A DNA stretch of 44,447 nt from Cyanobacteria bacterium P01_A01_bin.84 (GCA_039030795.1 JBCCDM010000001.1:1-44447), one strand, 5' to 3'; counted from the stretch's first letter, positions 2,573 to 44,087 are shown. Notes: generated by a model from the sequence alone, not told the origin. Numbers and translations are program-made.

Positions 2573-3187
2573 ATGACCAGTACTTCAGACTTTAACAGGT
2601 TCAATTATATCAAGGGAGCTAACAAAGATATAACGATTGAATTAATTAGCTGGTTCACAAAATCGCAAGAATATATTAACCAGTACTTCGGAGGAGACAG
2701 AAACCAAATCAACAAGACCGTTTTTGGTGATTGCGTATCAAAAATAGAATCATTAATAGATTTAGTTATTGATGATAATTATTCATCAGAGTTTAGAGGA
2801 GTAAGGGATACAAATGGCCGCTTGCAAGCTGGCGCAATAATTTCAGAGCAGATAGGTGAACTTTACCCGTATACTGAAGAAAGAAAATATTTATCGATAG
2901 ACCCGTTTACTACTCCTCCTTGGAATTGTCTAAAATTAGAAGAGGTAGAATTTCCTGAAAAACAAAAAGGAGCAGCTACATGGTTGATAACAGAAATTGT
3001 TCGAGAAATAATTGATACAGAAATTGAAGGAGTAACTAAAGTATTAGCAATTGATAGAGCAAGAAACTTTTACTTAGATGTTGGATTTGAAGAAAATCCG
3101 GAGTATTTTAGAGAATTAATTTTAACGAAAGAAGCAGCAATATTTTTCTTAGAAGAACAATTAAATCGCAGAAGGAACATACAATGA
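2573..3187 (+). CDS. GNAT-family N-acetyltransferase-like protein (cassette copy 1)
   Basis: The C-terminal half has a GNAT motif-A-like segment (KQKGAATWLITEIVREI .. AIDRARNFYLDVGFEE). It is a paralog (roughly 80% aa identity by eye) of 23167..23778 on the minus strand. Confidence 0.55.
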   Translation: MTSTSDFNRFNYIKGANKDITIELISWFTKSQEYINQYFGGDRNQINKTVFGDCVSKIESLIDLVIDDNYSSEFRGVRDTNGRLQAGAIISEQIGELYPYTEERKYLSIDPFTTPPWNCLKLEEVEFPEKQKGAATWLITEIVREIIDTEIEGVTKVLAIDRARNFYLDVGFEENPEYFRELILTKEAAIFFLEEQLNRRRNIQ

Positions 3188-22891: not shown

Positions 22892-23167
22892 TTATTTTTC
22901 CTTTCTAGCTTCCATTTCCGCTATTTTATCCCTTAATAACTTCTCGGTTTTTTCAGTAGCTGCTAATCTATCTAAAAGCCTTTGTTTTCTTTGCAATATA
23001 CCTTCGAGATACTTCTTAAAACAACTCCCGTCAATTACCGATTGAATTCTTCTATCTTTTTCTTCCTGAGACATAGGTGTACCACACATTGCGGTCATAC
23101 CTAACTCATCAAGTCTTTCTCTCCATTTTATTTCTTCTTCTGTTGGTTGATAATTTTGTTTATCCAT
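22892..23167 (-). CDS. small coiled-coil partner protein of the GNAT cassette (copy 2)
   Basis: 91 aa, paralog of 3184..3450. The start codon overlaps the GNAT stop by 1 nt. Confidence 0.5.
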   Translation of the reverse strand: MDKQNYQPTEEEIKWRERLDELGMTAMCGTPMSQEEKDRRIQSVIDGSCFKKYLEGILQRKQRLLDRLAATEKTEKLLRDKIAEMEARKEK

Positions 23168-23778
23168 TATTGTTCTCTAGTTCTCAACTCTTTATTTAAG
23201 AAAAATCTTGCTGCTTCTCTTGTCAAAATCAATTCTCTAAAATACTCCGGATTTTCTTCAAATCCAATATCTAAATAAAATTTTCTTGCTCTATCAATTG
23301 CTAATACTTTAGTAACTCCTTCAATTTCTGTACCAATTGTTTCTTGAATGATTTCCGCCATTAACCAAGTAGCAGCTCCTTTCCTTTTTTCTGGAAACTC
23401 TACTCCCTCTAATTCTAAACAATTCCACGGTGGAGTAGTAAATGGGTCTATCGATAAGTATTTTCTATCTTCAGCATACGGGTAAAGCTCACCTATCTGC
23501 TCGGAAATTATAGCTCCTGCTTGTAATCTACCGTCTATATCCCTCACTCCCCTGAAATCGGATAAATAACTATCGTTATATATAAATAATTCTGCCAAAG
23601 CCTCTACTTTTGACACGCAATCTCCAAAAATTGTTTTATTAATTCGACTTCTATCTCCTTCAAAATATTGATTAATATATTCCTGCGATTTTGTTACCCA
23701 ACTAATTATTTCATTTTCAATTTCATTGTTTGCGCTAATTACATAAGTAAATCGGTTAAAATTTGAAACATTTGACAT
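23167..23778 (-). CDS. GNAT-family N-acetyltransferase-like protein (cassette copy 2)
   Basis: Paralog of 2573..3187, sharing KRKGAATWLMAEIIQE..AIDRARKFYLDIGFEE. The start is set at the second ATG (23778). A 45-bp tandem duplication creates an alternative upstream ATG at 23823. Confidence 0.55.
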   Translation of the reverse strand: MSNVSNFNRFTYVISANNEIENEIISWVTKSQEYINQYFEGDRSRINKTIFGDCVSKVEALAELFIYNDSYLSDFRGVRDIDGRLQAGAIISEQIGELYPYAEDRKYLSIDPFTTPPWNCLELEGVEFPEKRKGAATWLMAEIIQETIGTEIEGVTKVLAIDRARKFYLDIGFEENPEYFRELILTREAARFFLNKELRTREQ

Positions 23779-23826
23779 AATAATTACATAAGTAAATCGG
23801 TTGAAATTTGAAACATTTGACATAAC
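23737..23826. repeat. 45-bp tandem duplication spanning the GNAT copy-2 start codon
   Basis: Units 23737-23781 and 23782-23826 are identical at 43 of 45 positions. On the minus strand this duplicates MSNVSNFNRFTYVI. Confidence 0.85.
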
Positions 23827-25627: not shown

Positions 25628-25634
25628 TCGAATA

Positions 25635-27883: not shown

Positions 27884-27893
27884 CGCTTTTCTT

Positions 27894-28679: not shown

Positions 28680-28960
28680 GCCATGAATTGGTGCAAAACG
28701 GATAATTCCGCGTCCTTTCCACAGTTGAATTTTGTAATCTCTCGAATAGTTCCCTTCTTTGTAGTTTTGGGAGTCGTAGACTCAACCACTCAGAGGATAG
28801 TTTCTAGAAACTACGAAGGTGCCTACTCTACACCCGCTATAAGTCCGAAGATGGCGCAACCCATCGGCACTAGCCGGACTATAGACCAGACAAGTCACCT
28901 TGCGAAGGCTTCCCCAGAGTCCACAAGGAACTCCAAGTCTTTTCGATGACGCAGTAGGGC
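28680..28960 (-). ncRNA. candidate omega-RNA scaffold of the IS607-like tnpB
   Basis: Dense nested hairpins, given in plus-strand notation: AGTTTCTAGAAACT palindrome, GAGTC-gta-GACTC, and AGTCCG..(GATGG-cgcaac-CCATC)..CGGACT. It overlaps the tnpB 3' end and runs to the inferred element end. Confidence 0.4.
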
Positions 28961-30250
28961 TTTGATTCCTACGTTTCTTGAAGCGTTGACACCGGAATGC
29001 GCGGTATACCCACTAGCTGTTTTCACCCAAGTGGCACCAGTTTCGTATACCTCTTCACCAGCCACAACTTTTTCTGGTATATGGTTCTGGCGATTCACAG
29101 GGTTGCCCCAGGGATCTAGCTTTGAGGTGTTTTTTGGGTTCACTCTCGTGGTCAAAATACCATGACGAGCAAAAGCTGCGTGTTTCACGTTGTTGTATAT
29201 TTTGGACTTGAGCCAGTAAGCGCGTTTTTGATTCGATCTTCGCGAATACTTTCCACGGCATGGCTTCAAGTTCGCAAGATGTTCAAATGCTATAACCTGA
29301 CAGCCATAACCTACCGCTAAGTTCAAAATCTGTGAAGCTACATCATAGCCCATTGCTTTTTCACGATTGCGAATCTTTTCCCACTGTTTGTGGCAAAAAC
29401 CTTTGTGAATAATACCTGTTGCATTCATTTTCAAAGCAATTCTACCTAAATCTCTCTTCCTACTAGCCACACCCTCGGGTTGTTTGATGAAATGTCTAGC
29501 TATTTCCCTAATGGTGCAACCGTCGATTTCTAGGATAGAAACTATTGCTGCGTGATCATCTAAATCTAAATCTGTAGCAAGAATACGAAATGTATCTTGC
29601 TTTGTAATTTTTGCGATTCCTCCTGTGGCGGGTACATATCTTTGTATACAAAAAGTGATGTAAGCGTGTCCATTTTTTAAGACTATTGACGGAGAACTCT
29701 TGATCCAATCTTTGCCAACAGGCTGACCTTTGTAGTGGAACTTCAGCGACATCCACTGGCTTTTGACACGAACCTTGAGCATAATGTCAAGCCCGGAGTC
29801 ATCCCAAAACATATTGCCGCAATAAACTGGCGAGAAATTGAATTTCCTGGGTTGAACTGGTGGACGATGGTGCTTGTGACGCTTTGGCCGATTCTTCCAC
29901 TTTTCGTAACGGGTTTGCCATGATTCATAAGCACCTATAGCCGCACGTATAGCAGCACGCCTGAAGTCTCTGGGGCAACCGTCAAACTCTTGAGGCAGCG
30001 GGTATTGAGCTTCAATACCACTTTTCTTTTTGCCTTGAGTCAGTATTTCATAATAACGCCAACCACTGTCGTTGCCAGTAGCAGACAAACCAGAAGGATC
30101 GGTATTGATGAGCATAAAGTAAAACTCAGCGATCTGATTGTAATAGCTTTTTATTTCCTCAAAGCCATCAAAACATTTTGCTTGCGGATACAATCTTTGT
30201 TCCGCTGATTGCGTAGCTATGCTGAATCCTTTCTTTTTGGGTATGCCCAT
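28895..30250 (-). CDS. tnpB: TnpB-like protein with an apparently incomplete RuvC triad and no zinc-finger cysteines
   Basis: RuvC-I (ILATDLDLDD) and RuvC-II (VIAFEHLANL) are present. The RuvC-III position reads AHSGVNASRNVG (expected ..ADxNAAxNI), with Gly420 at 28991-28993. The CxxC..CxxC region reads TSKLDPWGNPV...VKTASGYT. Confidence 0.75.
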   Translation of the reverse strand: MGIPKKKGFSIATQSAEQRLYPQAKCFDGFEEIKSYYNQIAEFYFMLINTDPSGLSATGNDSGWRYYEILTQGKKKSGIEAQYPLPQEFDGCPRDFRRAAIRAAIGAYESWQTRYEKWKNRPKRHKHHRPPVQPRKFNFSPVYCGNMFWDDSGLDIMLKVRVKSQWMSLKFHYKGQPVGKDWIKSSPSIVLKNGHAYITFCIQRYVPATGGIAKITKQDTFRILATDLDLDDHAAIVSILEIDGCTIREIARHFIKQPEGVASRKRDLGRIALKMNATGIIHKGFCHKQWEKIRNREKAMGYDVASQILNLAVGYGCQVIAFEHLANLKPCRGKYSRRSNQKRAYWLKSKIYNNVKHAAFARHGILTTRVNPKNTSKLDPWGNPVNRQNHIPEKVVAGEEVYETGATWVKTASGYTAHSGVNASRNVGIKALLRHRKDLEFLVDSGEAFAR

Positions 30251-30297
30251 GAGTCCGACCTCCTCTGGTTTGTTTGTATGTTCTTGTTATGTACGAT

Positions 30298-30888
30298 TTA
30301 TTCCGTTTCAGCAAACCCTGATTCAATCTTTTTTTTGATGTTTTTCTCGTAACTTCTTAGGAAATATAATTTACTACTGAATGTGTGAAATATACTCATA
30401 AAGTCGTCAAGTAATTCCTGTCTTGGGGTTTTGTACACATTATTTATCACGACAAGCGAGCAGTTGTGCTGCAAGCAAAACCACTCAACAAAGTCAAATC
30501 CAAACCTACATAACCTGTCCTTGTGAGCAACTACTATGCTTTCTATCTCTCCTGTCATAACTTCAGACATCAAGTTCAAAAACTTTTTTCGTTTAAAGCT
30601 CATTCCGGAACCAATTTCAGAGACACACCGACATCCTGGGTAATGTGACCCCAAATACTTTATCTGAGACTCAAGGTCGTCTTTTTGGCTATGTGTAAAA
30701 ACCCTCGCGTATAACACCACCTGTTTGCTTGTATCTGCTATATTTATCTTTTCTAAGCTTTTCTTATTGTATCGGCGATCCCCCCCAGGAGAACGTATGC
30801 AATCTATTAAGCCTTCATCAGCCCATCTAGCTAGCGTTTTTGGATGGAAGCCAAATTCTTTATATGCTTGATTAGGTGTTAAATACAT
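30298..30888 (-). CDS. tnpA: IS607-type serine recombinase TnpA (MerR-like HTH + resolvase domain) with the nucleophile Ser replaced by Phe
   Basis: The N-terminal HTH is LTPNQAYKEFGFHPKTLARWADEGLI..IRSPGGDRRY. The catalytic box reads VLYARVFTHSQKDDLESQ where YARVS(S/T)..Q is expected. Phe64 is codon 30697-30699. Downstream is KDRLCRFGFDF. Confidence 0.75.
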   Translation of the reverse strand: MYLTPNQAYKEFGFHPKTLARWADEGLIDCIRSPGGDRRYNKKSLEKINIADTSKQVVLYARVFTHSQKDDLESQIKYLGSHYPGCRCVSEIGSGMSFKRKKFLNLMSEVMTGEIESIVVAHKDRLCRFGFDFVEWFCLQHNCSLVVINNVYKTPRQELLDDFMSIFHTFSSKLYFLRSYEKNIKKKIESGFAETE

Positions 30889-31005
30889 ATTAGCAACGAT
30901 TTATTACTATTCGCACCAATATGTTACTAGATAAGCGTACCAGAAAAGTACGACCGAATATATTTGGATAAACCCAAAAAGCAACATAAACACAGCGCTT
31001 GATAA

Positions 31006-31662: not shown

Positions 31663-31742
31663 CTAAATCGTACAAAAATATGATGCTCTACAGGTAAAAA
31701 AGCATCATATTTGTTTAATAAAACCATTAATTTAATATGAAG

Positions 31743-32353: not shown

Positions 32354-35300
32354 ATGTCTATCATATCCAAGCATTTTGATACTCGCCTCGGTCAGAACAT
32401 TGAAGCTTACGACAAGGAAGCGAAAAAACAGCAAAAACTAAATACTTCAGCACCTAAGACAGAGAAAATCACATCACTCAAAGAAGAACTCAATAACACG
32501 CTTCTGGAATATTTTTTCCCAGACACAGAATTCTCATTCGGACACGGTGACGAGTTCACTACAATAGATGAGCTTAAAAATCATCCCGATGACCATAAAT
32601 TATTAATCTCTTCAAAATCCCGATACTTGTATGCAGACGAATCGGCATTTGAAATAGTTGACGAAATATTCCCGGATAGGAAGGATAGGGGTGCTTACGG
32701 CTCAATACTACTTGGTGAATGTAATAAGGGAAAAGATTCCCCTCCACCACTATCAGGCAAATTAAACATATTAATAGTCGATGATGAAACCGGCGAGAAT
32801 GGAGGAATTATTGACAAAGAACAAGCTTATAGACTTACTGGAGACTGTTACGGTCAAATATCGGACGAAAAGTACAAAGAACTCACCGGACATAAAGAGG
32901 GAGACAAGTACCGCGTAATTCAGCATAGATTCGGATGGAAACCCCAAGAAGCTGACGAGCAATATCGCTTCGGGAAGGGTACGTTACGTCCAATGGATTT
33001 CAATGATATACAATATGAAACTGGAAAAGACTCCAAAATTGACTTAATTGTCCCCATATCATCGCTAAAAGGAACTGACAAACAACGTCCCGGTGGTGCG
33101 CTAAAACCCCAAATCAAGCCAGGATTGTACGAGCTTGATATTTGGATTGGTGAAAAATCTTTGTCTCAGCAAGGTAAAACCGCTACTTCCCAAATATGGG
33201 CATCATTCCCAGAAGGACAGAAGGATGCTTTGGAAAAGAGCAATGCAGAGGCTTTCAAGCTGTATTACGATTCTAAAGACCCCCGCAAGCTAGCTCAACT
33301 GTATTGCGAGAAGTACGAAAAGCGTAAGAAATTTGACCAAGAACGTTTACAGAAAGAAGAAGAATTAGCAGCATCTGGTAAAACTAGCACAATATCCAAA
33401 GAAGATTTAACGCCAGATGACCAAGAAGACGAGAAATCAAACCAGGTCGAAGATTTGATGATGTATCGCTTGGTTAAAGCTGACTTAACATCAGGTCACG
33501 GTCAATTACTAGAAACAGAAAAGGTCAAGCGAGAACTAGAGAAATTTGTAGTCAGGGAATACAAAGATATTGCCACTTTCAAAAATATCACCTTTGATAG
33601 GGCAATGGTTATCCCTTCCAAAGACCTAAAAAATGGTGAAATTTGCATACCAGGTAGAATTGATGACGACAAAGAAATACTAAACTTCCGCGCACCATTC
33701 CTCAACTCAAACGGGATGTGCGTTTCGCAACAAAAGCACACCGACGATATTCTTGGTCCCGACGGTAAACCAATTGAAGGCGTAATTTGCGTATCCGACG
33801 AAACAACTGAACGCATCTACGATAGGGTAACAAAGCAAATTAAAACTGCTTTAGCTCAAGTAGATGACGAAAAAATCCTAAATAGCTTACAATCATTCGT
33901 TGAAGGTGATATTACCTCAACCAAAGATGTCAAATTCAAAGATATCGGTGATTTGGAAAATATGCAGCGGGTTCGTTTCATAGATGCTCTCAACGAACAA
34001 ATTACCGAGTTGCAAAACCTTGGATTTGAAGTAGAATTACTGCCCAGAGAAAGCGAACAGGAACGCCAAGGTAGAGACTATGACGGAGATTGTGTTGGTT
34101 TCACCCTTGCTGAAAATTTTCCCAACCTAACCGCAGAAGCGATAGAGCGTAACAAGCCGGAAAACGCTTATCTACCAACAATCAAGGAAGCTAAGCAATC
34201 CTTCTACATCGGTGAAACAACAGAGCAACCCGAATTTGAAGCAATCGCACTCCAAATGTCAGACGGCATTAGCGTTGGTGTAATCAACAATCACCTTACA
34301 GCATTAGAAGCGCTTGAATCGGAAATTGAAATTATCCGCAATTCTGGCGATCGCCAATTAATAGCTAATTATGTTGATACGCTGAAAAGCAGTTACAGTA
34401 AAGTCCTGGAAAGAAACAACAAACAAGAAGACCCTTCTAAAAAGATTCCAGAAGCGCACCGCGACCACATGGAGCGCATCACAGAACTTGCTGATGCTAC
34501 AAATAGTCCGGAGGTGGTTGATAGAATATTTGACCTTAATCGGGATTTTTATCGCAGGCTAAATGAAGAAGCTTCTTACCAGAATCAAATAGCGGTTGAT
34601 TTATTCAAATCTAATAGAATACCGGATACAGATGCCATTAAACGTAACAGCAGCTATCTGCACCGCAACGTTAATTACATCCGCGATAAAAAGCAAGAGG
34701 GAGTATATCAAAATAAAGTAGTAGAAACCACGGGATATTCCCCTACAGAAATTAATATTAGAAGAGTTAATCGTCATTTCGCCAAACATAAGCTAGAATC
34801 TCGTCCCATATCCCAATTCCAGAATTTGTTTAAGGATATTGAATTTAGCTACCAGCAAAAAGCAGAAGCTACTCTTGCTAAGAGAAATTTTGATAAGTAT
34901 TTTAACGAAGCAGCTGAACTACAAAAACGTCAGAAGATTGATGAAGGACAGTCGGTATCCGTCCGCACCAGGAGTGGTTTAAATTTTGAAATTACTAATG
35001 TCGTTAGAACCGGCAACTTTAGTAAATTAAAAGAAGCGCTTGAGCAAGATAAAGCTTTCAGAATTGAGGTAAAAGAAAGCAAAAATAAAGCCAAGCCCCA
35101 CAAATACGAGGTATACGCCCAGTTCGATAATGAAAAAAGTGCTTTGGGTCATCCTAAATACCAAAAAATTGGTACGGTAATGCGGGATAACGAACACATA
35201 TTCAAAGATATGGATTCGTTACCCAAAAATCTTGATACGAGAATCAATGAATTTAAGGCAGCTATCAGCGACGCGCAGATAAAAGTTAGGTTTGATAAAG

Positions 35301-38300
35301 CATTAGAATCAGCAGACGCATTCCGCAGTTCTATACCGGAAAACCAATTAAAACAATACGCTGCTGCTACTTGGTCAATTTCTACTAAGAGAGATACTAG
35401 CGATACCGAATTAGGTTTTAATAAAAGCGCTAGTTTCGCTTTCAATGCTTTTACAAATGAAATAGTTGATAAAATAGAAGTTCTCCAGTTCGACGAGTTT
35501 ACGGTAAGTAACCTAAAAGAAGCTGAATTACAATCTGATTCAATTGATTTTAATACTCCCCAAGAAATTAGATTCGGCGCAGCAGCAATTGATAAAGATG
35601 GCGACACTGAAATTAAAAATGTTATTCAGTTAAAGACACCAGATGGGGAATATAAAGAAATTGGGGATATTTCTGCTACTGATGGTAGATTACCGTTAGG
35701 TACCACAGCATCCGCAACAATCAGTGGTGGTAATTTATCAACTGCAACCCTTAGTATTGATAACGTTTCAGTTAAAGTTAACGAACTAAATAAATACGAT
35801 ACTAAGGTAAATTCGGGTGAAGAAATCGAAGTATTAATTCAAGAGAGTGCTAGCTACAGCGACGGAGAAACTAAGATATTTATTGGTGACGATTATCTTG
35901 GTAAACTGCGACCAGAATCTCACGAAGAAGCGGTTAAAAACAATTGGTTGCAAAATAACCAACCCTTACAATTAAAGCTTGATTCAATTGTTGATGAAGG
36001 TAAACACCCTTATGCCATCGCTACAACCGGGGAAGGAAATAAACTTTACGTCAATATTGAAGACCAGTACAAATTGATTGATGAAGAAATGCAGGCTGTA
36101 CCTAATAAATTTAAGGGGTATAGCTTTGATGCAGAACAGGTACAAGCGCGACCTATAGTAGAAAAAACAGGACAGAAACCAATTGTCTACGTTAATGATA
36201 AGCCAGTAGGAACTATCAGCCAGGAAGATTTTAAAAAGATAGAACCAACTGGAGCATCTTTAATACCAAAGCTTGCAAAAATTGAAGGCAACGTTACTAC
36301 TTTAAAAGTTAGTTTAGATAAAGAAACTGTTCAATATCCAGAAACTTGGGTAAAGGAAAGGGAAGAGGTAACTGGTAAAGAATCTATCGCTATCAACACT
36401 TCCGAAGAATCTTACAAAGTTGATGAAACTAGCAGCAAACTTTATCAAAAACTAACCACAAGACAATCAATAGCATTCGAGGATACCGTTGATAGCTATA
36501 CTAATACCTTCAGCTTAGCTGTTGATGAGCGACAACTAGAAGCCACAGAAAAATACCTTAATAAGAATAATGTTGATTTTCAAGTTACAGAAAAGGAAGA
36601 CAAACCACTTGAAACCAATAAAGGTATGCGAGTAATTACCATAGATAAGGAATCACTCGACGACAAATTATTAGAAACGATAATTAGTAGAACTGGTGGA
36701 ATAAAATCTGACAAGTTTGAAATCCCAGAAATTCCTATTATTAAAGATGAATCCGTATATTATTTTGACCCAAAAGCTAATTATGGCGACAATGAATATC
36801 CTGCAATCGGTTTAGCTGTACCCGCACCAGATAGTCACATAGTAGACGAATTCCTCGGTAAGTATAATTTAGAAATATCTGGATTTAATGATAATAATAT
36901 CTATTACTTTTCTCTTATTGATGTTGAAAATTTTCCTTATGAAAAATACAACGAATTATACCCATCATCAGAGGAAGAATTTACAGAATACAAACAAGAT
37001 TTAGTTAGGTTAAAAAAGGATTTAAGTTCGCATCTAGGTAATCCTCTTGACTTAAGTGATGAAAATAATTTCAACACTTTTGATAAAAAAGTAGAAACAA
37101 TTCAAGAAAAACTCGATACTGGTTACAGTACCTTAGAAAGAAACAGAGATATTGGAACAGAATATCAACAAGCATTACAGAAGCTACCAAAAAGACCCAA
37201 TATTGAAGGATATGTAGAGCCACCAGCGCCAGACGTGAGTATCGTCAAAAAGCGCAAAGAAGCTCGTGCGATATTGCGTATTGGAAGTGCCTATAATCCC
37301 CAAACCCAAGAAAGTGGCGCATCTGCGATACTGGTATCTAATGATGGCAAAAATCAAATTGCACAAACTGCTAATTACTACCCTTCAGAAAAGAGTGATT
37401 TAAAAGCAGCGTACCAATCATTAATTCAAGGCTTGAACGAAGCAAAGGATAGGGGATACAAAGCGGTCAGAATCGAAACTAGCAATAATAACTTATACCA
37501 AAGATTGAAGTGCAATCCTCAGTATATGCACTTTAACGGTAAGAACAAAGAGTGCGAACCCCTCCATAAACAAGCAACAGATTTAATCAAAAGCTTTGAA
37601 TGGGGAATAACTCCGAAATTTACCAGCTATAAAAAATATCCCACTGCCGCACAAGCAAACCAAGTTGCTAATAATGCAATCGCTCAGAAAAGTTCGGTTA
37701 ATGATTTTGGTAGGAGTGAGCCACAACAAGCATCCGCGACACCAAATCAAACTCAACAAGTAGCATCGGTATCATCACCTTCACCAAACCAGCCTCAACA
37801 GGCATCACCTACACCTGCACCAAAACCAACTGTAAGTAGACAATCCCCACCACCCAAACAACAAACCGCAAGCAAGAAAAGAACGGGACTTACCGAAGGA
37901 CAAAAAGAAGCTCTATCAAAGATGATGGAGTTTTCCAAACAACCAAGAACCGATAAAGATAATAACGAATTCCTGCTTGAAGGTTATGCTGGAACGGGTA
38001 AAACTTTCGTAATTCAACAATTTCTTAAAGAGGTGCGTAAGTCGGGAGAAAATCCCAGAATCGCATTTACTGCTCCTACAAACAATGCGGTCAAAGTACT
38101 TAGGCAAATGGCAGAGAAACAAGGCATGACCGGGTTTGAAGCCAAAACTACGCATAAACTCTTAGGGCTAAAAAGAAATATTGATAAGATGTCAGGTGAT
38201 GTTAATTTCACCAGAAAAAAGACAGATGATAGACCAGAGCTTAAATACGATTACATAGTTGTTGATGAAGCATCAATGCTCAATGAATCGTTATACGAAC

Positions 38301-41300
38301 ATTGCAAAGAAGCTTCTCAAGCTGGTGTCAAAATAGTCTACATGGGCGACCCGGCACAACTTCCTCCGGTGAATGAATCAGAGAGTATGGTGTTCTCCCA
38401 AGTTAAAAATCGTTCTGAGCTTACTGAGGTGGTGCGCTACGACGGCGATATGGCAAGAATCGCCGAAGATATTCGTAATAATCTTAACTCAAAAAACCCT
38501 ACGCAAATACGGAATTCTCAAGACGGAACGGTCATTGCATTATCAAAAGAAGGCTTCAAAAATAAAGTCGAGGAATTATTTACTAGCGATGAATTCAAAG
38601 CAGACAACAGCAGCATCAAAGTTATAGCTTACACAAATAATAGAGTTGATGAAATCAATAAGCTTATCAAAGACAAGCTATATGGAGAAGATGCTCCAGA
38701 ATACTTGCCGGGAATGCGAATAATCGCCCGCGACCCGGTGAAAGGTGAATTTGGTACAGCACTTGATACTGCTGAAGAGATGACAATTACCAAAGCAAAA
38801 AAGGGTAAGGACGGCAATTTAGATATATGGATGTTAGAAGGGATCACCGAGAGTGGCGAACGCGCAGAATTCGATGTACTCGACTCCAAAAGTAAACCCC
38901 AGTTTCAAAGAGAACTTAGCAATTTAAGAAAGGAAATTTACAACGAGCCTATAGCACAACGAGATTGGTTGCCCTATTATGATTTAGCCGAACGATATGG
39001 TAACGTCCGTCCAGCCTATGCAATCACGGCACATAATTCTCAAGGTAAAACTATTCCTCAAGGTATAGTAGACCAAAACAACCTTAATCTACGCCTATCA
39101 ATGGCACTCAAAGAGGAAGACGGACAAGAACGTGCCAGAGGAATTAAAGAATATAATCAACTACGATACGTAGCAATGACTCGCTTTCAAAATGCAGTTT
39201 ATGTTGGTACCAATCAAAGAGAACAAGAAATAAATCACACTCAAGTAGAAAGTACCGATAATATAGATAGGCAAAATATTCAAGAATGGGCAAGGTATGC
39301 ACCTAAAGGTAAAGAGGGCTATGAACTATCGTCGGCCGGTGATAGTAGATTCAGCGCGCTAAATGCCAAGCTCAAAGATGGCAGAACTATCGAAGAAGCA
39401 TACCAACTTGACGTTAAAGGATACCGCTCTCAAAGTGATAATTGGCGGTTGGGGAAAGGTAAGCCACCGCTGACACCAATGACAAAAGAAGAAAGCTATC
39501 AGAAATATAAGGAATTGTGGCAACAGTGGGCTAACGAAAATCCCCAGCTTATCGATGAATTAGCTCAGAAATCTCAAGGCAAGGTACTTACCGATAAATT
39601 TGCCAGCACAAATATATCCCAAGCACGCGCATTAGTTGAGATATTAAATGAACGAAATATCCAAAGTCCGCAGCAAACACCAATATCTTTACCTTCATCC
39701 CAAGAAGCAGATAAAAGTAAATCGTTAGAAATAGTAGGTAAAATCAGCGAAAGCAAAGTAGACCAATTAAGACAGCATCTAGAAACCAATTACCAACCTT
39801 TAATGGATGCTGATAAATCCAGCTATGCTCCTGGAAGACAAGTAGCTTGGGTTGAAGCAAAATGGGAGTTAAAAGATAAAGATTTCTCTCCAGGGGTTAA
39901 AGACGACAAGTTAATGGAACTTGTCAAACAAATTTACCCCGATGCTGACATAGCACTTGTCACCTATTCGGAACAGCAAGGGCAAGGTATCGATTACCAC
40001 CGAGATGATTCCTACGCCGCAGCGGAAGCACGTAGTATTAATATCGGTGATTCTATGTGGGGGTATCAAGCATCAAAACAAGGGATGGTAGCATATGACC
40101 CAAACGCAAATGATAATGCTCCAATTCAAGAATTTAAACTGGAGTCAGGAACTGTAACGCGCTTCAACTCCAAAAATCCCCATGCAGCTTTAGAAACTAG
40201 TGCAGGAAGATGGAGTATAAATGTTTGGTCGATTAAAAATGATTTAGGTAAAAATAATAGCGTCCGCGAAAAGTTTGATAAGTTTGTTGAATCCAATCAA
40301 CCACCAACTGCTGTAGTTGAAACCAATACCGATTTAACTATTAAAGAATCGGAATGGACTCGTGGTGGTGAAATCAAAATTGAGCGGAGTTACCAAAATA
40401 TACAAGATGCAAATACAGCAGGAATAATTAGATTAGGTAACGCTACTCAAACACGAGCCGCTACACCAAAAATACCAGATAATCCCCAAATATCGGGTAA
40501 AACCATACCAATGACTTGGGAATTAAACCAATCCCCCGAACTAAAAAGTGTAAGCACTACAATCGATGCTATGCGCGGTAATGGTAGAGTGCATTCCACT
40601 AGGGCACAAAACTATTACCAAACCTACGGCATCAAGGAAGGAGATATCGCCGTAGCAAAAGGTAAAGATAATAAACAAGTAGCTTTTAGAGTTGGTAAAC
40701 AATACAAAATTACCCAAGCTATAATTAATAATCCCGATTATCAAAAAGCTTGGCAAAATTGGGAGAAACATTCAGTTAAAGAACTTACCGAGAATCAAGC
40801 TGCTAAAGGGAAAGAACGACAGCTATACGGCTTATTCATGGAGCCTTTAGGTGATTATCAAAATGGTAAAATTATTCCCTTTGAACAACATAAACAGCAA
40901 GAGCGCACTCTTAATATCACCTTCGATGGTGCCTCGCGTAATAATGGTAAACCCAACGCTCAAGCTTCAGCAGCTGCGGTACTTACCAATCCAGAAGGAA
41001 GAACTAAACAAGTTAGTCAATATCTAGGAAATAAAACCAATAACGAAACCGAATTCCAAGCTGCGATTATTGGCATGAAAGCAGCCCAAAAATTTGGGTA
41101 TAAATCTATTCAAATTCAAGGTGATTCGCAGTTAGTAGTTGAAGCGCTTCAAGGCAATAGAAATATCAAAGCAGCTAATCTAAAACCCCTCTACGAAGAA
41201 GCTAAATCTTTACTGAATTCATTTGATAAAGCTGAAATTAGCTATATTCCCAGAGAGCAAAATAAAGCTGCCGATGCACTAGCTAATAAAGCCCTTGATA

Positions 41301-43399
41301 ATGCTCAAAATATCAACCCCATCGCCAATATTGAGCCAGTTACCGAAGCTACTGCCAAGCATATGGTTAAAGATAAGGCTATGGCAGAGTTTGCGACGCA
41401 GTATATCGGCATCAGTGCAGCATCACCAGATACCCCATCAAGTACCAGGAATTATGCTGAAGCCTGGGGTGATAAAGCAAATACCGGCTCCTACACCAAT
41501 AAAGATGTAATCATGATTAGTGGCTCCGGTCCCTGGCGCGGGGTAACTCAAAGTCAGATTGAGGAAAACTTTAATAAAGAATATATACCGCTACTTGATA
41601 AAGCAATTGAGGCTAAGAGTAATATCGTTGTAGGTAATGCTAAAGGAACAGATGAATTAGTAAAAAATTATCTACAAGAAAAGGGATATAAATTAGAACA
41701 AACATCAAATAACTACGCTCAGTTATCTTCTCAAACTAGAGAAATACAGGCTTCTAACAAAATTTCAAAAATCACGAGTATAGGACAGTTGGGTGCTGAT
41801 TTAGGAGCATTGGAAGCAGCCAAAAATAAAGGTATAAAAACCGGAGGTGTTGCAGCAAACGGATATTTTACAGAAAAAGGTCAAGCACCAGATTTACTTC
41901 AAGGTTACGGACTAAGTGAAGGAGAAAAAGGTAAAGGATTCGGTCAAACTTACAAAAACGCTTATTCGGCTAATATCCGCAGTAGCGATGCAACAGTATT
42001 AATAGGACGTATTCTTAATCGCAACGAAGATACAGATAAGGATTTAATTGAAATTATCAGTCGCTACAACAAACCGTGCCTAGTAATCCCCAAAGAGGAA
42101 GTATTATCTAACCCTCAAGCAGCTGGAGAAAAGATTGCTCAATTTGCATCTCAAAATAATGCTCAAAATTTAAATATAATTGGCGAGCGAGAAAGTCATG
42201 CACCGGGGATGCAAAATGCCGTACAGGAAGCTATCGGTAAAACCTTAGAGCTAAATTCTCGTACTGAGTATAAAGTTAAAAATCCACCCTTTGAGCAGAA
42301 TGCAGCAGATTTGAAAACTGAACAAGTCGCGGCTAAACAGAAAAATGAACAACCAGATAAAGAGTCATCATTCATAAAAACACAGAGCAAAAGCCAACTT
42401 ACACAAAATGTTGGTACTACTATTAGTGCCTACAGTAATGATGGTTTAGGAGCAGCTCTATCCCCAGAAACTAAGCTAGCCTCCGATAATGGTAATTTAC
42501 AGAATAATTACCCTGTTAGCTATCAAGACAATAAAGAATTACCCGCTGGTAATTATGGTGGCGAAAATTACCCAGATGTCAAACCTATAGGTCAACCCTT
42601 TGTATCAGCGAACCAAGCCTATCATGCTTACAAAGAGCCGTCAGAGCAAGCAGCACAAAAGATAGCCAGGATGACGGAAGTACTCAAAGCCAAATTAGAA
42701 CAGCACCCAAGATTAGTTAGTGCGATCGCAAAACGTGGTGGTGTTGAATTCCTTGAAAATTCCACTCATATTTCTAGTTCCCAAGATAAATTTTGGGATG
42801 GTAGAGGTAAAGAATCTAAATTTATTCAGGCTTTGAGTGCGGCTTACACCACCATAGAAAAAAGTCAAGGTAAAGTATCGACACAAGAAGCAGATTCAGT
42901 GGCTCAATCCCTCCAGAAATGGACGGAGGATGCACAATTCCTTAATCGCAATTATGTAGACACAATCAATCAAATCCAAAATATATATGCTAATACCAAA
43001 AAGCCACTAACGGAAAATCACTTAAAAACTATGGATAAAGATAGTAAGGATGCGGCAGTTACTAAAGAAGTTAAAAACCTAGTCACGCGACTTACCAATA
43101 CCTTAGTGCAGGATAATAGGGAAGACGGTTCTAAACTAGTTCAAGGTAAAAGATATATTTTAGAATCTAATCAAAATACTGGCCTTACTCGTATAACTAG
43201 TACGAGTACTGCTGATATTTTATTGAGTATAGAAAACAATCAGGTTAAAGCTAACAACCTAAATAGTGACGTATACCAATCTTTGAAATCAGCAGTGCAA
43301 GCAGTAGATGAAAAAATAAAAGCTGCTCAAGAAATAACGGGTTATAATAACAGTAATTCTGAACGCAATATGACAGAAAAAATTCAAATAGCAAAGTAA
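32354..43399 (+). CDS. 3,681-aa multidomain 'polyvalent' protein
   Basis: Uninterrupted 11,046-nt ORF. All minus-strand ORFs inside it are short shadows. The domains (RdRP/YonO-like polymerase, degenerate RNase H, Dda/RecD-like helicase, AlkB-like, RNase HI, SLOG x2, NADAR-like) are listed as separate features below. Confidence 0.9.
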   Translation: MSIISKHFDTRLGQNIEAYDKEAKKQQKLNTSAPKTEKITSLKEELNNTLLEYFFPDTEFSFGHGDEFTTIDELKNHPDDHKLLISSKSRYLYADESAFEIVDEIFPDRKDRGAYGSILLGECNKGKDSPPPLSGKLNILIVDDETGENGGIIDKEQAYRLTGDCYGQISDEKYKELTGHKEGDKYRVIQHRFGWKPQEADEQYRFGKGTLRPMDFNDIQYETGKDSKIDLIVPISSLKGTDKQRPGGALKPQIKPGLYELDIWIGEKSLSQQGKTATSQIWASFPEGQKDALEKSNAEAFKLYYDSKDPRKLAQLYCEKYEKRKKFDQERLQKEEELAASGKTSTISKEDLTPDDQEDEKSNQVEDLMMYRLVKADLTSGHGQLLETEKVKRELEKFVVREYKDIATFKNITFDRAMVIPSKDLKNGEICIPGRIDDDKEILNFRAPFLNSNGMCVSQQKHTDDILGPDGKPIEGVICVSDETTERIYDRVTKQIKTALAQVDDEKILNSLQSFVEGDITSTKDVKFKDIGDLENMQRVRFIDALNEQITELQNLGFEVELLPRESEQERQGRDYDGDCVGFTLAENFPNLTAEAIERNKPENAYLPTIKEAKQSFYIGETTEQPEFEAIALQMSDGISVGVINNHLTALEALESEIEIIRNSGDRQLIANYVDTLKSSYSKVLERNNKQEDPSKKIPEAHRDHMERITELADATNSPEVVDRIFDLNRDFYRRLNEEASYQNQIAVDLFKSNRIPDTDAIKRNSSYLHRNVNYIRDKKQEGVYQNKVVETTGYSPTEINIRRVNRHFAKHKLESRPISQFQNLFKDIEFSYQQKAEATLAKRNFDKYFNEAAELQKRQKIDEGQSVSVRTRSGLNFEITNVVRTGNFSKLKEALEQDKAFRIEVKESKNKAKPHKYEVYAQFDNEKSALGHPKYQKIGTVMRDNEHIFKDMDSLPKNLDTRINEFKAAISDAQIKVRFDKALESADAFRSSIPENQLKQYAAATWSISTKRDTSDTELGFNKSASFAFNAFTNEIVDKIEVLQFDEFTVSNLKEAELQSDSIDFNTPQEIRFGAAAIDKDGDTEIKNVIQLKTPDGEYKEIGDISATDGRLPLGTTASATISGGNLSTATLSIDNVSVKVNELNKYDTKVNSGEEIEVLIQESASYSDGETKIFIGDDYLGKLRPESHEEAVKNNWLQNNQPLQLKLDSIVDEGKHPYAIATTGEGNKLYVNIEDQYKLIDEEMQAVPNKFKGYSFDAEQVQARPIVEKTGQKPIVYVNDKPVGTISQEDFKKIEPTGASLIPKLAKIEGNVTTLKVSLDKETVQYPETWVKEREEVTGKESIAINTSEESYKVDETSSKLYQKLTTRQSIAFEDTVDSYTNTFSLAVDERQLEATEKYLNKNNVDFQVTEKEDKPLETNKGMRVITIDKESLDDKLLETIISRTGGIKSDKFEIPEIPIIKDESVYYFDPKANYGDNEYPAIGLAVPAPDSHIVDEFLGKYNLEISGFNDNNIYYFSLIDVENFPYEKYNELYPSSEEEFTEYKQDLVRLKKDLSSHLGNPLDLSDENNFNTFDKKVETIQEKLDTGYSTLERNRDIGTEYQQALQKLPKRPNIEGYVEPPAPDVSIVKKRKEARAILRIGSAYNPQTQESGASAILVSNDGKNQIAQTANYYPSEKSDLKAAYQSLIQGLNEAKDRGYKAVRIETSNNNLYQRLKCNPQYMHFNGKNKECEPLHKQATDLIKSFEWGITPKFTSYKKYPTAAQANQVANNAIAQKSSVNDFGRSEPQQASATPNQTQQVASVSSPSPNQPQQASPTPAPKPTVSRQSPPPKQQTASKKRTGLTEGQKEALSKMMEFSKQPRTDKDNNEFLLEGYAGTGKTFVIQQFLKEVRKSGENPRIAFTAPTNNAVKVLRQMAEKQGMTGFEAKTTHKLLGLKRNIDKMSGDVNFTRKKTDDRPELKYDYIVVDEASMLNESLYEHCKEASQAGVKIVYMGDPAQLPPVNESESMVFSQVKNRSELTEVVRYDGDMARIAEDIRNNLNSKNPTQIRNSQDGTVIALSKEGFKNKVEELFTSDEFKADNSSIKVIAYTNNRVDEINKLIKDKLYGEDAPEYLPGMRIIARDPVKGEFGTALDTAEEMTITKAKKGKDGNLDIWMLEGITESGERAEFDVLDSKSKPQFQRELSNLRKEIYNEPIAQRDWLPYYDLAERYGNVRPAYAITAHNSQGKTIPQGIVDQNNLNLRLSMALKEEDGQERARGIKEYNQLRYVAMTRFQNAVYVGTNQREQEINHTQVESTDNIDRQNIQEWARYAPKGKEGYELSSAGDSRFSALNAKLKDGRTIEEAYQLDVKGYRSQSDNWRLGKGKPPLTPMTKEESYQKYKELWQQWANENPQLIDELAQKSQGKVLTDKFASTNISQARALVEILNERNIQSPQQTPISLPSSQEADKSKSLEIVGKISESKVDQLRQHLETNYQPLMDADKSSYAPGRQVAWVEAKWELKDKDFSPGVKDDKLMELVKQIYPDADIALVTYSEQQGQGIDYHRDDSYAAAEARSINIGDSMWGYQASKQGMVAYDPNANDNAPIQEFKLESGTVTRFNSKNPHAALETSAGRWSINVWSIKNDLGKNNSVREKFDKFVESNQPPTAVVETNTDLTIKESEWTRGGEIKIERSYQNIQDANTAGIIRLGNATQTRAATPKIPDNPQISGKTIPMTWELNQSPELKSVSTTIDAMRGNGRVHSTRAQNYYQTYGIKEGDIAVAKGKDNKQVAFRVGKQYKITQAIINNPDYQKAWQNWEKHSVKELTENQAAKGKERQLYGLFMEPLGDYQNGKIIPFEQHKQQERTLNITFDGASRNNGKPNAQASAAAVLTNPEGRTKQVSQYLGNKTNNETEFQAAIIGMKAAQKFGYKSIQIQGDSQLVVEALQGNRNIKAANLKPLYEEAKSLLNSFDKAEISYIPREQNKAADALANKALDNAQNINPIANIEPVTEATAKHMVKDKAMAEFATQYIGISAASPDTPSSTRNYAEAWGDKANTGSYTNKDVIMISGSGPWRGVTQSQIEENFNKEYIPLLDKAIEAKSNIVVGNAKGTDELVKNYLQEKGYKLEQTSNNYAQLSSQTREIQASNKISKITSIGQLGADLGALEAAKNKGIKTGGVAANGYFTEKGQAPDLLQGYGLSEGEKGKGFGQTYKNAYSANIRSSDATVLIGRILNRNEDTDKDLIEIISRYNKPCLVIPKEEVLSNPQAAGEKIAQFASQNNAQNLNIIGERESHAPGMQNAVQEAIGKTLELNSRTEYKVKNPPFEQNAADLKTEQVAAKQKNEQPDKESSFIKTQSKSQLTQNVGTTISAYSNDGLGAALSPETKLASDNGNLQNNYPVSYQDNKELPAGNYGGENYPDVKPIGQPFVSANQAYHAYKEPSEQAAQKIARMTEVLKAKLEQHPRLVSAIAKRGGVEFLENSTHISSSQDKFWDGRGKESKFIQALSAAYTTIEKSQGKVSTQEADSVAQSLQKWTEDAQFLNRNYVDTINQIQNIYANTKKPLTENHLKTMDKDSKDAAVTKEVKNLVTRLTNTLVQDNREDGSKLVQGKRYILESNQNTGLTRITSTSTADILLSIENNQVKANNLNSDVYQSLKSAVQAVDEKIKAAQEITGYNNSNSERNMTEKIQIAK
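32900..34640 (+). other. domain: eukaryotic-RdRP / YonO-like two-barrel RNA polymerase core
   Basis: Four collinear motifs: VIQHRFGW..RFGKGTLRP (32915-32992), ILNFRAPFLNSNGMCV (33677-33724), RDYDGDCVGF (DYDGD = 34076-34090), and GISVGVINNHL (34265-34297) followed by QIAVDLFKSNRIPD (34586-34627). Confidence 0.6.
37262..37690 (+). other. domain: RNase H-fold, catalytic carboxylates apparently all substituted
   Basis: It aligns with the second RNase HI domain (..GYKAVRIETSN.. vs ..GYKSIQIQGDS..). It has G, A, T and N at the positions of the D-E-D-D tetrad. Confidence 0.5.
37888..39215 (+). other. domain: Dda/RecD/TraA-like SF1 helicase
   Basis: LTEGQKEAL, Walker A GYAGTGKTF, APTNNAVKVL, Walker B YIVVDEASML, VYMGDPAQLPPV, AITAHNSQGKT and RYVAMTRFQNAVYV. 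Confidence 0.8.
39800..40240 (+). other. domain: AlkB-like 2OG-Fe(II) dioxygenase
   Basis: GIDYHRDD (H2549-x-D2551, 39998-40006), NPHAALE (H2610, 40181-40183) and GRWSINVWS (R2619, 40208-40210). Confidence 0.6.
40909..41310 (+). other. domain: canonical RNase HI
   Basis: LNITFDGASRNNG (D2858), TNNETEFQAAI (E2898 or the Glu two residues later), IQGDSQLVV and REQNKAADALANKAL. Confidence 0.8.
41497..41700 (+). other. domain: SLOG-superfamily-like Rossmannoid (DprA/LOG/YpsA-like), weak call
   Basis: VIMISGSGPWRG ... NIVVGNAKGTDELVKNYLQEKGY resembles the Gly-rich loop plus the G-x-A-x-G-x-D signature. Confidence 0.35.
41765..42250 (+). other. domain: YpsA / 'molybdenum-cofactor-carrier'-type SLOG domain
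   Basis: ITSIGQLGADLGALEAAKNKGIKTGGVAANGYFTEKG ... NIRSSDATVLIG ... KPCLVI ... LNIIGERESHAPG matches the GGQTGxDRAALDxA..GG.CPxGR..E..NVAGPRES pattern. Confidence 0.6.
42411..42870 (+). other. domain: NADAR (YbiA/DUF1768)-like
   Basis: FVSANQAYHAYK (cf. F.S.EH.FQA.K), KLEQHPRLVSAIAKRGGVEFLENS (cf. KF.QNP.L...LL.TG...L.E.S), DKFWDGRG (cf. D..WG.G) and FIQALSAAY. Confidence 0.5.
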
Positions 43400-43403
43400 A
43401 TAA

Positions 43404-44087
43404 ATGAGTAATACAGCAGTAATAGATAAAGTTAATTTTCTTAATAAAGGAAGCGGCTATTCAAACAATAGAATGGCATATGAATTATCAAAATTATTAA
43501 AAGAACGCAGCATAGAAAAAACAACACCACAACAAGAAACTTCCGCAAGAAAAGAATTTAGTCAAGTATTCTCATCGAAAAGTAATCCTCAGAAGGATAG
43601 AGAGGAATTAGCCAACCAATTCCGAGATAGATTCCTTAAACAGATGAAGCTTGAAGCGCCAGCAGCATCTAATATCAAAAAAAGTTTAGAAGTAAATAAT
43701 CAAAAGACTGAAGTAGAAATGGGTAAAGACAAAATAAAGCTTGAATTGCCCAAAATTGAAGAAGTACGTAAAGCTATTCCTAAAATCATACAAACTATTA
43801 TCTTTAAAGGTAAAGGCAAAGATACCAACAATAAATCGTTTGAAACTCATAGTTATAAAGCTAACCTAAAACTTGATGGCGACAATCAACAATTGACTAT
43901 AGAACGTAACAATGATAAATCTGTAGCCTTAGAAGCGATCAAAAAAGGTAAGGGAGAATTTGAAATTACCAACACCTCTATAGCTAAAGATGAGTTGAAA
44001 CAAATACAAAGCTCTATCAAACAACAATCACAAACCTCAACAAGAAGTCCTCGAATTAAAAACAAAAACAGCGATTTAGAGATGTAA
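43404..44087 (+). CDS. hypothetical Lys-rich protein carrying the shared C-terminal module
   Basis: 227 aa, starting 5 nt after the giant ORF stop. THSYKANLKLDGDNQQLTIERNNDKS..IAKDELKQIQSSI aligns with the C-termini of the giant protein and both zeta-like kinases. Confidence 0.5.
   Translation: MSNTAVIDKVNFLNKGSGYSNNRMAYELSKLLKERSIEKTTPQQETSARKEFSQVFSSKSNPQKDREELANQFRDRFLKQMKLEAPAASNIKKSLEVNNQKTEVEMGKDKIKLELPKIEEVRKAIPKIIQTIIFKGKGKDTNNKSFETHSYKANLKLDGDNQQLTIERNNDKSVALEAIKKGKGEFEITNTSIAKDELKQIQSSIKQQSQTSTRSPRIKNKNSDLEM

Follow-up and report, generated by a model that had tools for sequence, protein, structure and literature searches.

Bacterial relatives of the eukaryotic RNA-silencing polymerases were catalogued in cyanobacteria in 2010 by Ruprich-Robert and Thuriaux, as proteins similar to YonO and to RNA-dependent RNA polymerases (RdRPs) (PMC2919709); the list of YonO-like proteins was restated in the 2017 paper on YonO. 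Iyer and Aravind, as summarised in PMC3417536, noted in 2011-2012 a cyanobacterial fusion of an RdRP-like protein to RNase H and proposed a primase-like role for the RdRP-like enzymes of selfish elements. The relevant passages of the two papers treat these proteins at the level of motifs, place them in 'main genomes' and regard their function as an enigma. We analysed a 44,447-nucleotide (nt) stretch of DNA from Cyanobacteria bacterium P01_A01_bin.84 (GCA_039030795.1 JBCCDM010000001.1:1-44447; hereafter the window). One 11-kb gene of the window encodes a giant protein with a predicted polymerase of this type at its N-terminus (the head), a long series of further domains (the tail) and a C-terminal module that profile comparisons also detect in plasmid relaxases.

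Export of enzymes during conjugation has precedents. Sog of IncI plasmids and TraC of RP4 are exported plasmid primases; relaxases are canonical substrates of type IV secretion, and the BID signal was recognised as a domain common to a relaxase and co-encoded effectors. Phages inject polymerases (crAss gp66, P23-45 and N4) that are very large, are delivered with the DNA and transcribe on arrival: crAss gp66 is a giant injected protein with a two-barrel polymerase, and the N4 virion polymerase is of an unrelated, T7-like type. In P23-45, a two-barrel polymerase stands at the N-terminus of a 5,002-amino-acid (aa) tape-measure fusion (bioRxiv 10.1101/2022.12.01.518664). F-type conjugation systems export several plasmid proteins (PMC8406263). 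The main text of the survey of polyvalent proteins names no RdRP or YonO, RNase H, AlkB, SLOG, NADAR, KfrB or Zeta toxin, and the survey reports a paucity of polyvalent proteins in cyanobacteria (PMC5512222).

The giant gene is a single open reading frame (ORF) of 3,681 codons that begins with an ATG at 32354 and closes with a stop ending at 43399; the runner-up in the window encodes 781 aa. An ORF of this length did not arise by chance, because 3,681 codons stay open in DNA of ~38-40% G+C. The AT skew was positive throughout the ORF (0.18-0.27), which fits one coding strand, and the start codon was backed by homologues sharing the N-terminal sequence MS/TI..KHFDTRL. The junction between the head and a degenerate RNase H domain was spanned by a homologue from another assembly (P0125), and that between the helicase and the oxygenase by P0103 and P0107; aa 2299-3235 were continuous in P0102, and aa 2431-3001 and 3120-3681 in P0101. 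The sole junction lacking an independent spanning homologue was the passage from the proline-, glutamine- and serine-rich (P/Q/S-rich) linker to the helicase. Checks of homologue spans, skew and start gave no sign of a frameshift artefact in the ORF. These findings demonstrate that the giant ORF is real and is one uninterrupted gene, as had been claimed in an initial annotation of the window. The coordinates given there for the linker (aa 1789-1844), a ~125-aa unit containing YELSSAGDSRFSAL (aa 2311-2434) and a ~100-aa unit (aa 2713-2843) were also accurate.

Direct sequence searches of the head against Pfam, NCBIfam and the PDB gave no match, and no Pfam RdRP family was matched. Because these searches found nothing, the head was identified only by structure prediction. 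An AlphaFold2 model of aa 1-1000, built from 46 sequences, had a predicted local distance difference test score (pLDDT) of 85.5 and a predicted template modelling score (pTM) of 0.81. In the model, a first barrel (aa ~186-280) is followed by a second (aa ~413-590) with a helical insert and then by long helices. The top five Foldseek matches in the PDB were four structures of QDE-1 and maize RDR2. The QDE-1 structures were matched over ~1,000 aligned columns at E values from 1.6e-7 (7y7t) to 1.4e-5, and maize RDR2 (7w88) at 1.3e-4; template modelling (TM) scores of the QDE-1 and RDR2 matches ranged from 0.27 to 0.41, with the highest for QDE-1 7y7r (0.38/0.41). The next ranks were occupied by Arabidopsis RDR2, Pol IV and the largest subunits of cellular and poxviral polymerases. 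Among the viral models of BFVD, a phage 'RNA dependent RNA polymerase' ranked first (E 6e-11), followed by crAss-like giant proteins; the model from Cellulophaga phage phi14:2 was matched at E 0.018.

In two-barrel polymerases the second barrel carries an invariant R-x-P, represented in QDE-1 by R962 and P964 (PMC2919709). Its counterpart in the head is R446-x-P448, upstream of the DxDGD motif. D575, D577 and G578 of the latter were invariant in the 32-46 homologues aligned, and D579 was conserved in ≥90% of them. Together, R-x-P and DxDGD make up five of the eight residues that are common to all two-barrel polymerases according to PMC2919709. Invariant D164, R192, K208, D230 and K239 are candidates for the first-barrel residues (D709, R738 and K743 of QDE-1). 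From the model and the motifs, the head contains a two-barrel RNA polymerase (QDE-1/RdRP/YonO type) in a single chain, with an intact-looking catalytic centre, in agreement with the RdRP/YonO-like two-barrel fold first proposed for it.

The head has in common with QDE-1 and RDR2 two double-psi beta-barrels in one chain and the DYDGD motif; it differs from them in its low identity (10-11%), in its location on a bacterial plasmid and in being followed by ~2,700 further residues of other domains. QDE-1 is described, in the cited part of PMC9508822, as taking both single-stranded DNA and RNA as template. With the cyanobacterial YonO-like proteins the giant protein shares the single-chain two-barrel architecture, the R-x-P and DxDGD motifs and, in some of them, a fusion to RNase H, and it apparently belongs to the same family. 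The combination of domains had at first been taken to be undescribed; this has to be corrected in view of the YonO/RdRP-like proteins listed in 2010 (PMC2919709) and the RNase H fusion noted in the cited portion of PMC3417536. The cited passages of these two papers apparently contain neither the ~1,600-aa head nor its relaxase linkage, the long shuffled tail or the relaxase-shared module. The delineation of the head, the linkage to a relaxase (in most of the nine loci examined), the cassette tail and the terminal module shared with relaxases therefore appear to be new. A literature search for a plasmid- or conjugation-linked two-barrel polymerase found nothing beyond the works cited here.

The protein encoded by the giant ORF belongs to a family of giant plasmid proteins that spans the cyanobacteria. 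When the first 800 aa were used as a tblastn query, relatives with 47-53% identity were found on 81 plasmids, all of them cyanobacterial, of which 43 are typed conjugative and 25 non-mobilizable. A scan of species-representative genomes revealed 287 with a relative; the best 80 of the 287 are all cyanobacteria, the closest among them being the marine 'Cyanobacteria bacterium J06635_10' (88%) and Calothrix parasitica plasmid1 (61%). Phage origin was rejected on zero tblastn matches in 50,697 phage records. BLAST maps showed the head in all giant homologues, with 39-41% identity across aa 1-1430/1630 in eight plasmid proteins and many database proteins, and resolved the tail into discrete cassettes whose order and combination differ among homologues. 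The protein of pCC7120alpha (1,596 aa) consists of the head and the C-terminal module and nothing more. The family-defining unit is the ~1,600-aa head; the core initially placed at aa ~190-760 is indeed a two-barrel core, but the conserved unit is considerably larger. A Richelia relative is 35% identical to the window protein in the head and 75% in the tail; therefore, tails have been exchanged between lineages, apparently by recombination. On the contig that encodes this relative (Richelia sp. RM1_1_1; L009, 8892-17955), the first ~390 aa of the head apparently lie on a separate upstream gene (295 aa), and the giant gene is followed by one whose product (P0215) combines a NADAR-like domain with the C-terminal module.

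A second model, of aa 830-1650 (pLDDT 80, pTM 0.51), covered the remainder of the head (aa ~860-1630). There was no confident Foldseek match in the PDB and no Pfam or NCBIfam match, in keeping with the ~870 aa in which no motif had been recognised at first; the region is now placed within the conserved head. The top Foldseek match of aa 830-1650, a phytochrome, was spurious and was not accepted. A likeness to LAGLIDADG homing endonucleases was recurrent but weak (probability up to 0.92, TM ≤0.26) and was likewise not accepted. The LAGLIDADG-like region consists of paired alpha/beta modules at ~aa 1370-1530 (nt ~36460-36945), a position estimated from the pattern of secondary structure. In the Prochloraceae protein P0083 (1,304 aa), PrimPol and PriCT-2 domains (aa 1-~400) are fused ahead of the head; the head portion, aa 408-1252, can be aligned with aa 6-888 of the window's giant protein.

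BLAST and phmmer searches with the window's own C-terminus did not reveal any shared module. A hidden Markov model (HMM) built solely from the C-termini of other plasmids' giant proteins did. Among 149 window ORFs, its top four matches were the giant (E 2.5e-6) and ORFs 16612 (3.3e-4), 20578 (0.02) and 43404 (0.048), the same three proteins with which the giant had been said to share a ~60-aa end module. An HMM of the module extended it to relaxases: in Chroococcidiopsis pCHRO.01 it matched aa 404-466 of the 482-aa MOBP relaxase (E 0.004), and in the reciprocal search tblastn with the C-terminal half of that relaxase matched the module of window ORF 16612 (E 0.009). In hhalign comparisons with the module, four relaxase C-termini gave a probability of 88% (E 2.9e-6), and eight, Richelia included, gave 87% (E 4e-6, 66 columns); the aligned stretches covered 60-66 columns. 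In ~30 of 33 database proteins, 3-6 residues separate the module from the C-terminus, and some small module proteins consist of a NADAR-like domain plus the module. On the basis of these profiles, an invariant ~65-aa module ends the giant proteins and also MOBP relaxases of related plasmids, Zeta-like kinases, small NADAR-like proteins and the product of the gene downstream of the giant. No Pfam or PDB family matched it, and a suspected relationship to the KfrB domain was not supported by profile searches. By analogy with known signals, the module may be a candidate recognition or docking signal for type IV secretion. The window's own relaxase lacks the module, and the link between module and relaxase consequently rests on other plasmids. 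In pCHRO.01 (L004, 7273-9524), an IS4 transposase stands between a Zeta-toxin family gene and a 91-aa ORF that matches the module; this ORF seems to be the end of a module-bearing Zeta-like gene split by the IS4 insertion.

Gene order was compared at eight plasmid loci and one Richelia contig (nine loci). In most of them the relaxase is followed by a small divergent gene, the giant gene and a gene of 220-300 aa, and this synteny is complete or partial across the nine. The downstream partner gene begins 5-45 bases past the stop of the giant and is kept in 7/9 loci; pCC7120alpha has no such partner, and no relaxase is annotated at the Brasilonema locus. In most related plasmids the position of the small divergent gene is taken by a gene of comparable size; only those of L002, L003 and L007 showed sequence similarity to the window copy (~24% identity). 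The window relaxase is ~130 aa shorter than its relatives and can be aligned to other relaxases at aa 1-285 only.

The chain of the giant protein holds at least nine distinct units (Table 1), and these, together with the plasmid context and the shuffling of cassettes among relatives, bear out the polyvalent-protein logic under which the gene was originally described. The first tail domain is a degenerate RNase H fold that aligns to the second, canonical copy at E 9e-9; in this alignment the catalytic Glu is replaced by A and the second Asp by S, and inspection shows G in place of the first Asp and Q in place of the last. All four carboxylates are thus substituted, as had been proposed. Beyond the P/Q/S-rich linker, the helicase matched AAA_30 (80.3 bits; cut-off 27) and AAA_19 (76 bits; cut-off 25.1), the Dda-like family phrog_325 (E 9e-83) and the NCBIfam families RecD2/RecD, with Walker A (GYAGTGKT) at 1877 and Walker B (DEASM) at 1971. 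The canonical RNase HI has a complete D-E-D-D set (D2858, E2900, D2924 and D2974) and matched Halobacterium RNase HI (PDB 4e19) at E 3.5e-21 with DGAS, NNETEF, GDSQLV and AADALAN aligned; judged by these residues, the second copy is predicted to be active. The circularly permuted YpsA (cpYpsA) domain scored 69.5-72.4 bits against PF12694 (cut-off 26.2). Linker, Dda/RecD-like superfamily 1 (SF1) helicase, canonical RNase HI and YpsA/MoCo-carrier-type SLOG domain are therefore all as first described.

Three further assignments had to be revised or qualified. The domain named 'AlkB-like' had, in a profile search of 1.84 billion representatives, homologues in 210 clusters, mostly stand-alone proteins of 170-200 aa. 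A Pfam scan of 53 members gave 2OG-FeII_Oxy_3 in 22, with weak scores (window copy, E 0.0047), 2OG-FeII_Oxy in six, PhyH in three and the AlkB-type 2OG-FeII_Oxy_2 in three; H2549-R-D2551, H2610 and R2619 were conserved in ≥90% of the 53. Membership of the 2-oxoglutarate (2OG)-Fe(II) oxygenase superfamily (H-x-D...H...R) was upheld. However, the domain is not demonstrably AlkB, because only 3/53 members match the AlkB-type profile (PF13532, best E 0.06); no AlkB was found among the PDB profile matches, and matches of a broader oxygenase profile to eL39 in the PDB were spurious. The reading of aa 2988-3122 as 'SLOG-like' was not supported: YAcAr scored 16.9 bits against a cut-off of 28.2 (E 0.0055, 30 residues), neither hhalign with the cpYpsA alignment nor a profile search of the PDB gave a match, and NCBIfam gave none either. 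The next domain (aa 3357-3505) is likely NADAR-like, on profile evidence. Its best PDB match was E. coli YbiA (2b3w; E 0.85, and 0.027 with a broader alignment), and Pfam NADAR was the sole recurrent family (8/23 members, best E 0.019), but all matches remained below the 35.1-bit cut-off. Homologues of this domain also occur as stand-alone proteins of 129-150 aa without a precomputed Pfam domain.

The ~125-aa YELSSAGDSRFSAL unit was confirmed as a discrete and very mobile unit (phrog_9995). Copies with 55-76% identity occur in dozens of unrelated multidomain proteins, in some of which the unit accompanies ArdC-N and N6_Mtase or ART-PolyVal. Searches of PDB, Pfam and NCBIfam yielded no assignment for it; matches to designed repeat proteins in the PDB were an artefact of a short repeated motif, and DUF4326, seen in relatives, lies outside the shared unit. 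The ~100-aa unit (aa 2713-2843) likewise proved to be mobile, recurring as a separate cassette in many homologues, and had no match in PDB, Pfam or NCBIfam. Such high mobility between unrelated proteins argues that the tail cassettes are functionally important. Six multidomain proteins without a polymerase head (P0115, P0123, P0124, P0126, P0136 and P0139) carry the same cassettes (aa 2311-2434 unit, oxygenase, aa 2988-3122 unit, cpYpsA and RNase H) and additionally DUF4326, a dual-specificity phosphatase domain and DUF488-N3, which suggests that headless proteins and giants draw on a common pool of exchangeable modules. The giant protein thus resembles the polyvalent proteins (PMC5512222) in combining many unrelated enzymatic domains in one chain, in its conjugative-type element, in cassette shuffling and in the unit shared with ArdC-N/N6_Mtase and ART-PolyVal proteins; it differs from them in that its family is defined by a large polymerase head and in that the end module is common to relaxases.

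We propose, as an overall picture and with a probability of roughly 0.55, that the giant protein is an exported priming or transcribing and repair enzyme that acts on incoming single-stranded DNA. Docked by the module on the type IV secretion or coupling machinery of the plasmid, the protein would leave the donor together with the transferred strand. Once in the recipient, its polymerase head would use the incoming single-stranded DNA as template for RNA, which could serve as primer for the complementary strand, as early transcript, or as both. The RNA:DNA hybrids so formed would be handled by RNase HI and the helicase; the cassettes of oxygenase, NADAR-like and SLOG type might act on base modifications, by repair or reversal, or clear nucleotide-derived defence signals. 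Relative to the presumed origin of transfer, the giant gene would be on the same side as the relaxase and, by analogy with RP4 and R64, would reach a recipient late; an early role there would therefore need delivery as protein. The proposal has parallels in the use of single-stranded DNA by QDE-1, the PrimPol and PriCT-2 fusion of P0083, the primase-like role suggested by Iyer and Aravind, the phage delivery of giant proteins with two-barrel polymerases and the export of several proteins by F-type systems. Two parts of it are tentative: actual export of an active polymerase is doubtful, and it is possible, at similarly modest odds, that the module is an unrecognised type IV secretion signal common to relaxases, the giant and a few effector enzymes (Zeta-like kinases and NADAR-like proteins), and that a QDE-1-like head is injected along with the strand and synthesises RNA on single-stranded plasmid DNA independently of the host polymerase.

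The proposed enzyme would resemble Sog and TraC, by analogy, in the position of its gene beside the relaxase and in the proposed RNA synthesis on the incoming strand, and the BID-type signals, again by analogy, in a signal domain common to the relaxase and co-encoded proteins. In neither sequence nor fold is it related to DnaG-type primases or BID domains. As regards the injected phage polymerases, crAss-like and phage RdRP-like proteins were the best viral structural matches to the head; the phage enzymes, however, are virion proteins, whereas the route predicted here is conjugation, and no phage record matches the head by sequence.

Several observations weigh against the exported-enzyme proposal. 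The window holds no type IV secretion genes, and its own relaxase, as noted, ends without the module. The statistics for the module are moderate (best relaxase HMM E value, 0.004; hhalign probability, <90%). At 410 kDa, the predicted cargo would be a very large secretion substrate. Neither ~800 aa of the head nor three tail cassettes could be assigned, and the functions ascribed to the tail cassettes are read from family names. Finally, the fusion of PrimPol to the head in P0083 implies that the polymerase is perhaps not itself the primase.

An enzyme of the resident cell, acting as replication primase or plasmid-specific transcriptase with hybrid-processing and repair domains attached, and with the module as an assembly domain that gathers relaxase, kinases and giant in a relaxosome or replisome, is a rather unlikely alternative. 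The polymerase fold and motifs, RNase HI, the helicase and the PrimPol fusion fit replication priming equally well, and 25/81 homologue plasmids are typed non-mobilizable; the giant gene lies among partition genes, and one module-bearing Zeta-like protein carries KfrB, a family linked to plasmid maintenance. However, in most loci examined the gene is linked to a relaxase and not to a replication initiator, the placing of the module, at the very C-terminal end both of unrelated enzymes and of relaxases, is what secretion signals usually show, and the oxygenase, NADAR-like, SLOG and ArdC/ART-PolyVal-shared units are typical of establishment or anti-defence proteins. An improbable alternative is a conflict or defence system in which the polymerase makes antisense or double-stranded RNA against competing elements or phages, with the tail supplying effectors or regulators. 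The nearest solved structures to the head are RNA-silencing polymerases, RNA-mediated regulation was raised as a possibility by Ruprich-Robert and Thuriaux (PMC2919709), the neighbouring genes encode Zeta-toxin-like kinases, and SLOG and NADAR-type domains occur in conflict systems; yet the family is tied to relaxase genes and plasmids, and no Argonaute, Dicer-like or other known partner was found among 20 Pfam-scanned window ORFs. It is highly improbable that the long ORF is an assembly or frame error fusing ordinary genes, or a non-functional relic: despite the unusual size of the protein, the one linker-helicase junction without an independent spanning homologue and the apparently divided Richelia head, uninterrupted relatives of 1,596-3,310 aa are present on complete plasmids from independent projects, the catalytic residues are conserved, the strand composition is even and most junctions are spanned elsewhere.

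The bacterial relatives of the RNA-silencing polymerases, an enigma since 2010, are thereby given a concrete plasmid setting near a relaxase. Hundreds of cyanobacteria, among them the model strain Nostoc PCC 7120, have relatives, and the role of the family is therefore directly testable. Export of the giant protein, if real, would make it the first RNA polymerase delivered by a plasmid, a conjugative counterpart of the phage virion RNA polymerases, and conjugation and phage infection would have converged on one strategy. The protein would likewise be a present-day instance of the primase-like ancestry suggested for the eukaryotic RNA interference polymerases. The module would in that case offer a handle for finding secreted proteins of cyanobacterial plasmids and possibly for protein delivery into cyanobacteria. 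The tail is a catalogue of candidate repair or anti-defence activities (oxygenase, NADAR-like, SLOG and three further units).

Table 1. Coordinates of the giant ORF, its parts and associated features in the window (aa numbers refer to the giant protein unless another protein is named)
Feature	Position (nt)	Strand	Evidence
Whole giant ORF, 3,681 aa	32354..43399	+	ORF scan and translation
Conserved head, aa 1-~1630	32354..37243	+	BLAST maps; present in all giant homologues
Predicted QDE-1/RdRP-like two-barrel RNA polymerase core, aa ~130-860	32741..34933	+	AlphaFold2 and Foldseek
NFRAPFLNSNG motif with R446-x-P448, aa 444-454	33683..33715	+	Invariant in 32-46 homologues
DYDGD metal-binding motif, aa 575-579	34076..34090	+	32-46 homologues
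Rest of head, beta-rich domains followed by alpha/beta modules, aa ~860-1630	34934..37243	+	AlphaFold2 model
Degenerate RNase H fold, aa ~1640-1795	37271..37738	+	Pfam RVT_3, E 5.9e-8
P/Q/S-rich linker, aa 1789-1844	37718..37885	+	Translation
SF1B Dda/RecD-like helicase, aa ~1844-2293	37883..39232	+	Pfam, phrog_325, NCBIfam
Mobile ~125-aa unit, YE.S..GD.RFSAL...DGRTIEEAYQLD, aa 2311-2434	39284..39655	+	phrog_9995, E 2e-46
2OG-Fe(II) oxygenase superfamily domain, aa ~2457-2647	39722..40294	+	Per-member Pfam scan
Mobile unit, aa 2713-2843	40490..40882	+	Recurs as separate cassette in many homologues
Canonical RNase HI, aa 2855-2987	40916..41314	+	Pfam RVT_3, E 5.7e-35; RNase_H
Mobile unit, aa 2988-3122 (formerly 'SLOG-like')	41315..41719	+	YAcAr below threshold
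cpYpsA (circularly permuted YpsA) SLOG domain, aa 3140-3296	41771..42241	+	Pfam PF12694
NADAR-like domain (likely), divergent family, aa 3357-3505	42422..42868	+	PDB profile, Pfam
C-terminal module, aa 3590-3660	43121..43333	+	HMM of other plasmids' giants
Module copy, end of Zeta_toxin + KfrB protein (ORF 16612..17775)	17530..17745	+	HMM
Module copy, end of second Zeta-toxin-like P-loop protein (ORF 20578..21486)	21259..21480	+	HMM
Downstream gene, 227 aa, C-terminal module at its aa 141-214	43404..44087	+	5 nt after giant stop
Small divergent gene, 191 aa	31743..32318	-	Start 35 nt from giant ORF start
MobA/VirD2-type relaxase, 366 aa	21773..22873	+	Pfam Relaxase, E 7.6e-29

The neighbourhood was annotated by Pfam scans of the same 20 window ORFs. 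They identified ParA at 7719 and ParB at 8502, two single-stranded DNA-binding proteins (SSBs) at 10063 and 11406, a ParM-like actin fold at 13025 on the - strand, and two Zeta-toxin-like P-loop proteins at 16612 (additionally with a KfrB domain) and 20578. With the relaxase, these confirm the context of relaxase, SSBs and ParAB from which the initial annotation had argued, and add the ParM-like gene to it. No antitoxin-like partner of the Zeta-like genes was recognised in these scans; the two genes, of Zeta-toxin/AAA_33 type (16612-17775 and 20578-21486), sit either side of the 781-aa ORF.

The small divergent gene and the giant gene start 35 nt apart, and therefore both promoters must overlap coding sequence. 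Tight head-to-head spacing of the two genes (30-48 nt) was also found in pCHRO.01, pANACY.02 and pCC7120alpha. The counterpart of the small divergent gene in pCC7120beta is annotated as a class I S-adenosylmethionine (SAM)-dependent methyltransferase. The distance from the relaxase to the small divergent gene is ~8.8 kb in the window (22874-31742) versus <1.5 kb in most related plasmids. Within this stretch, the - strand ORFs at 28895..30888 resemble, by eye, an IS607-type recombinase/TnpB pair.

Inverted repeats were found at 2774-3428 and 22923-23574, 19.5-20 kb apart (389 nt at 85% and 246 nt at 74% complementarity). The repeats coincide with a pair of paralogues, 2573..3187 (+) and 23167..23823 (-), and enclose ParA/ParB, both SSBs, the ParM-like gene, both Zeta-like genes and the relaxase; the enclosed segment could be invertible or prone to recombination. 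Direct repeats with 83-84% identity were present at 27149-27306 and 28059-28216, at the starts of paralogous helix-turn-helix-type genes (27167 and 28257), and, with the same identity, at 11003-11113 and 11853-11963, either side of the second SSB gene.

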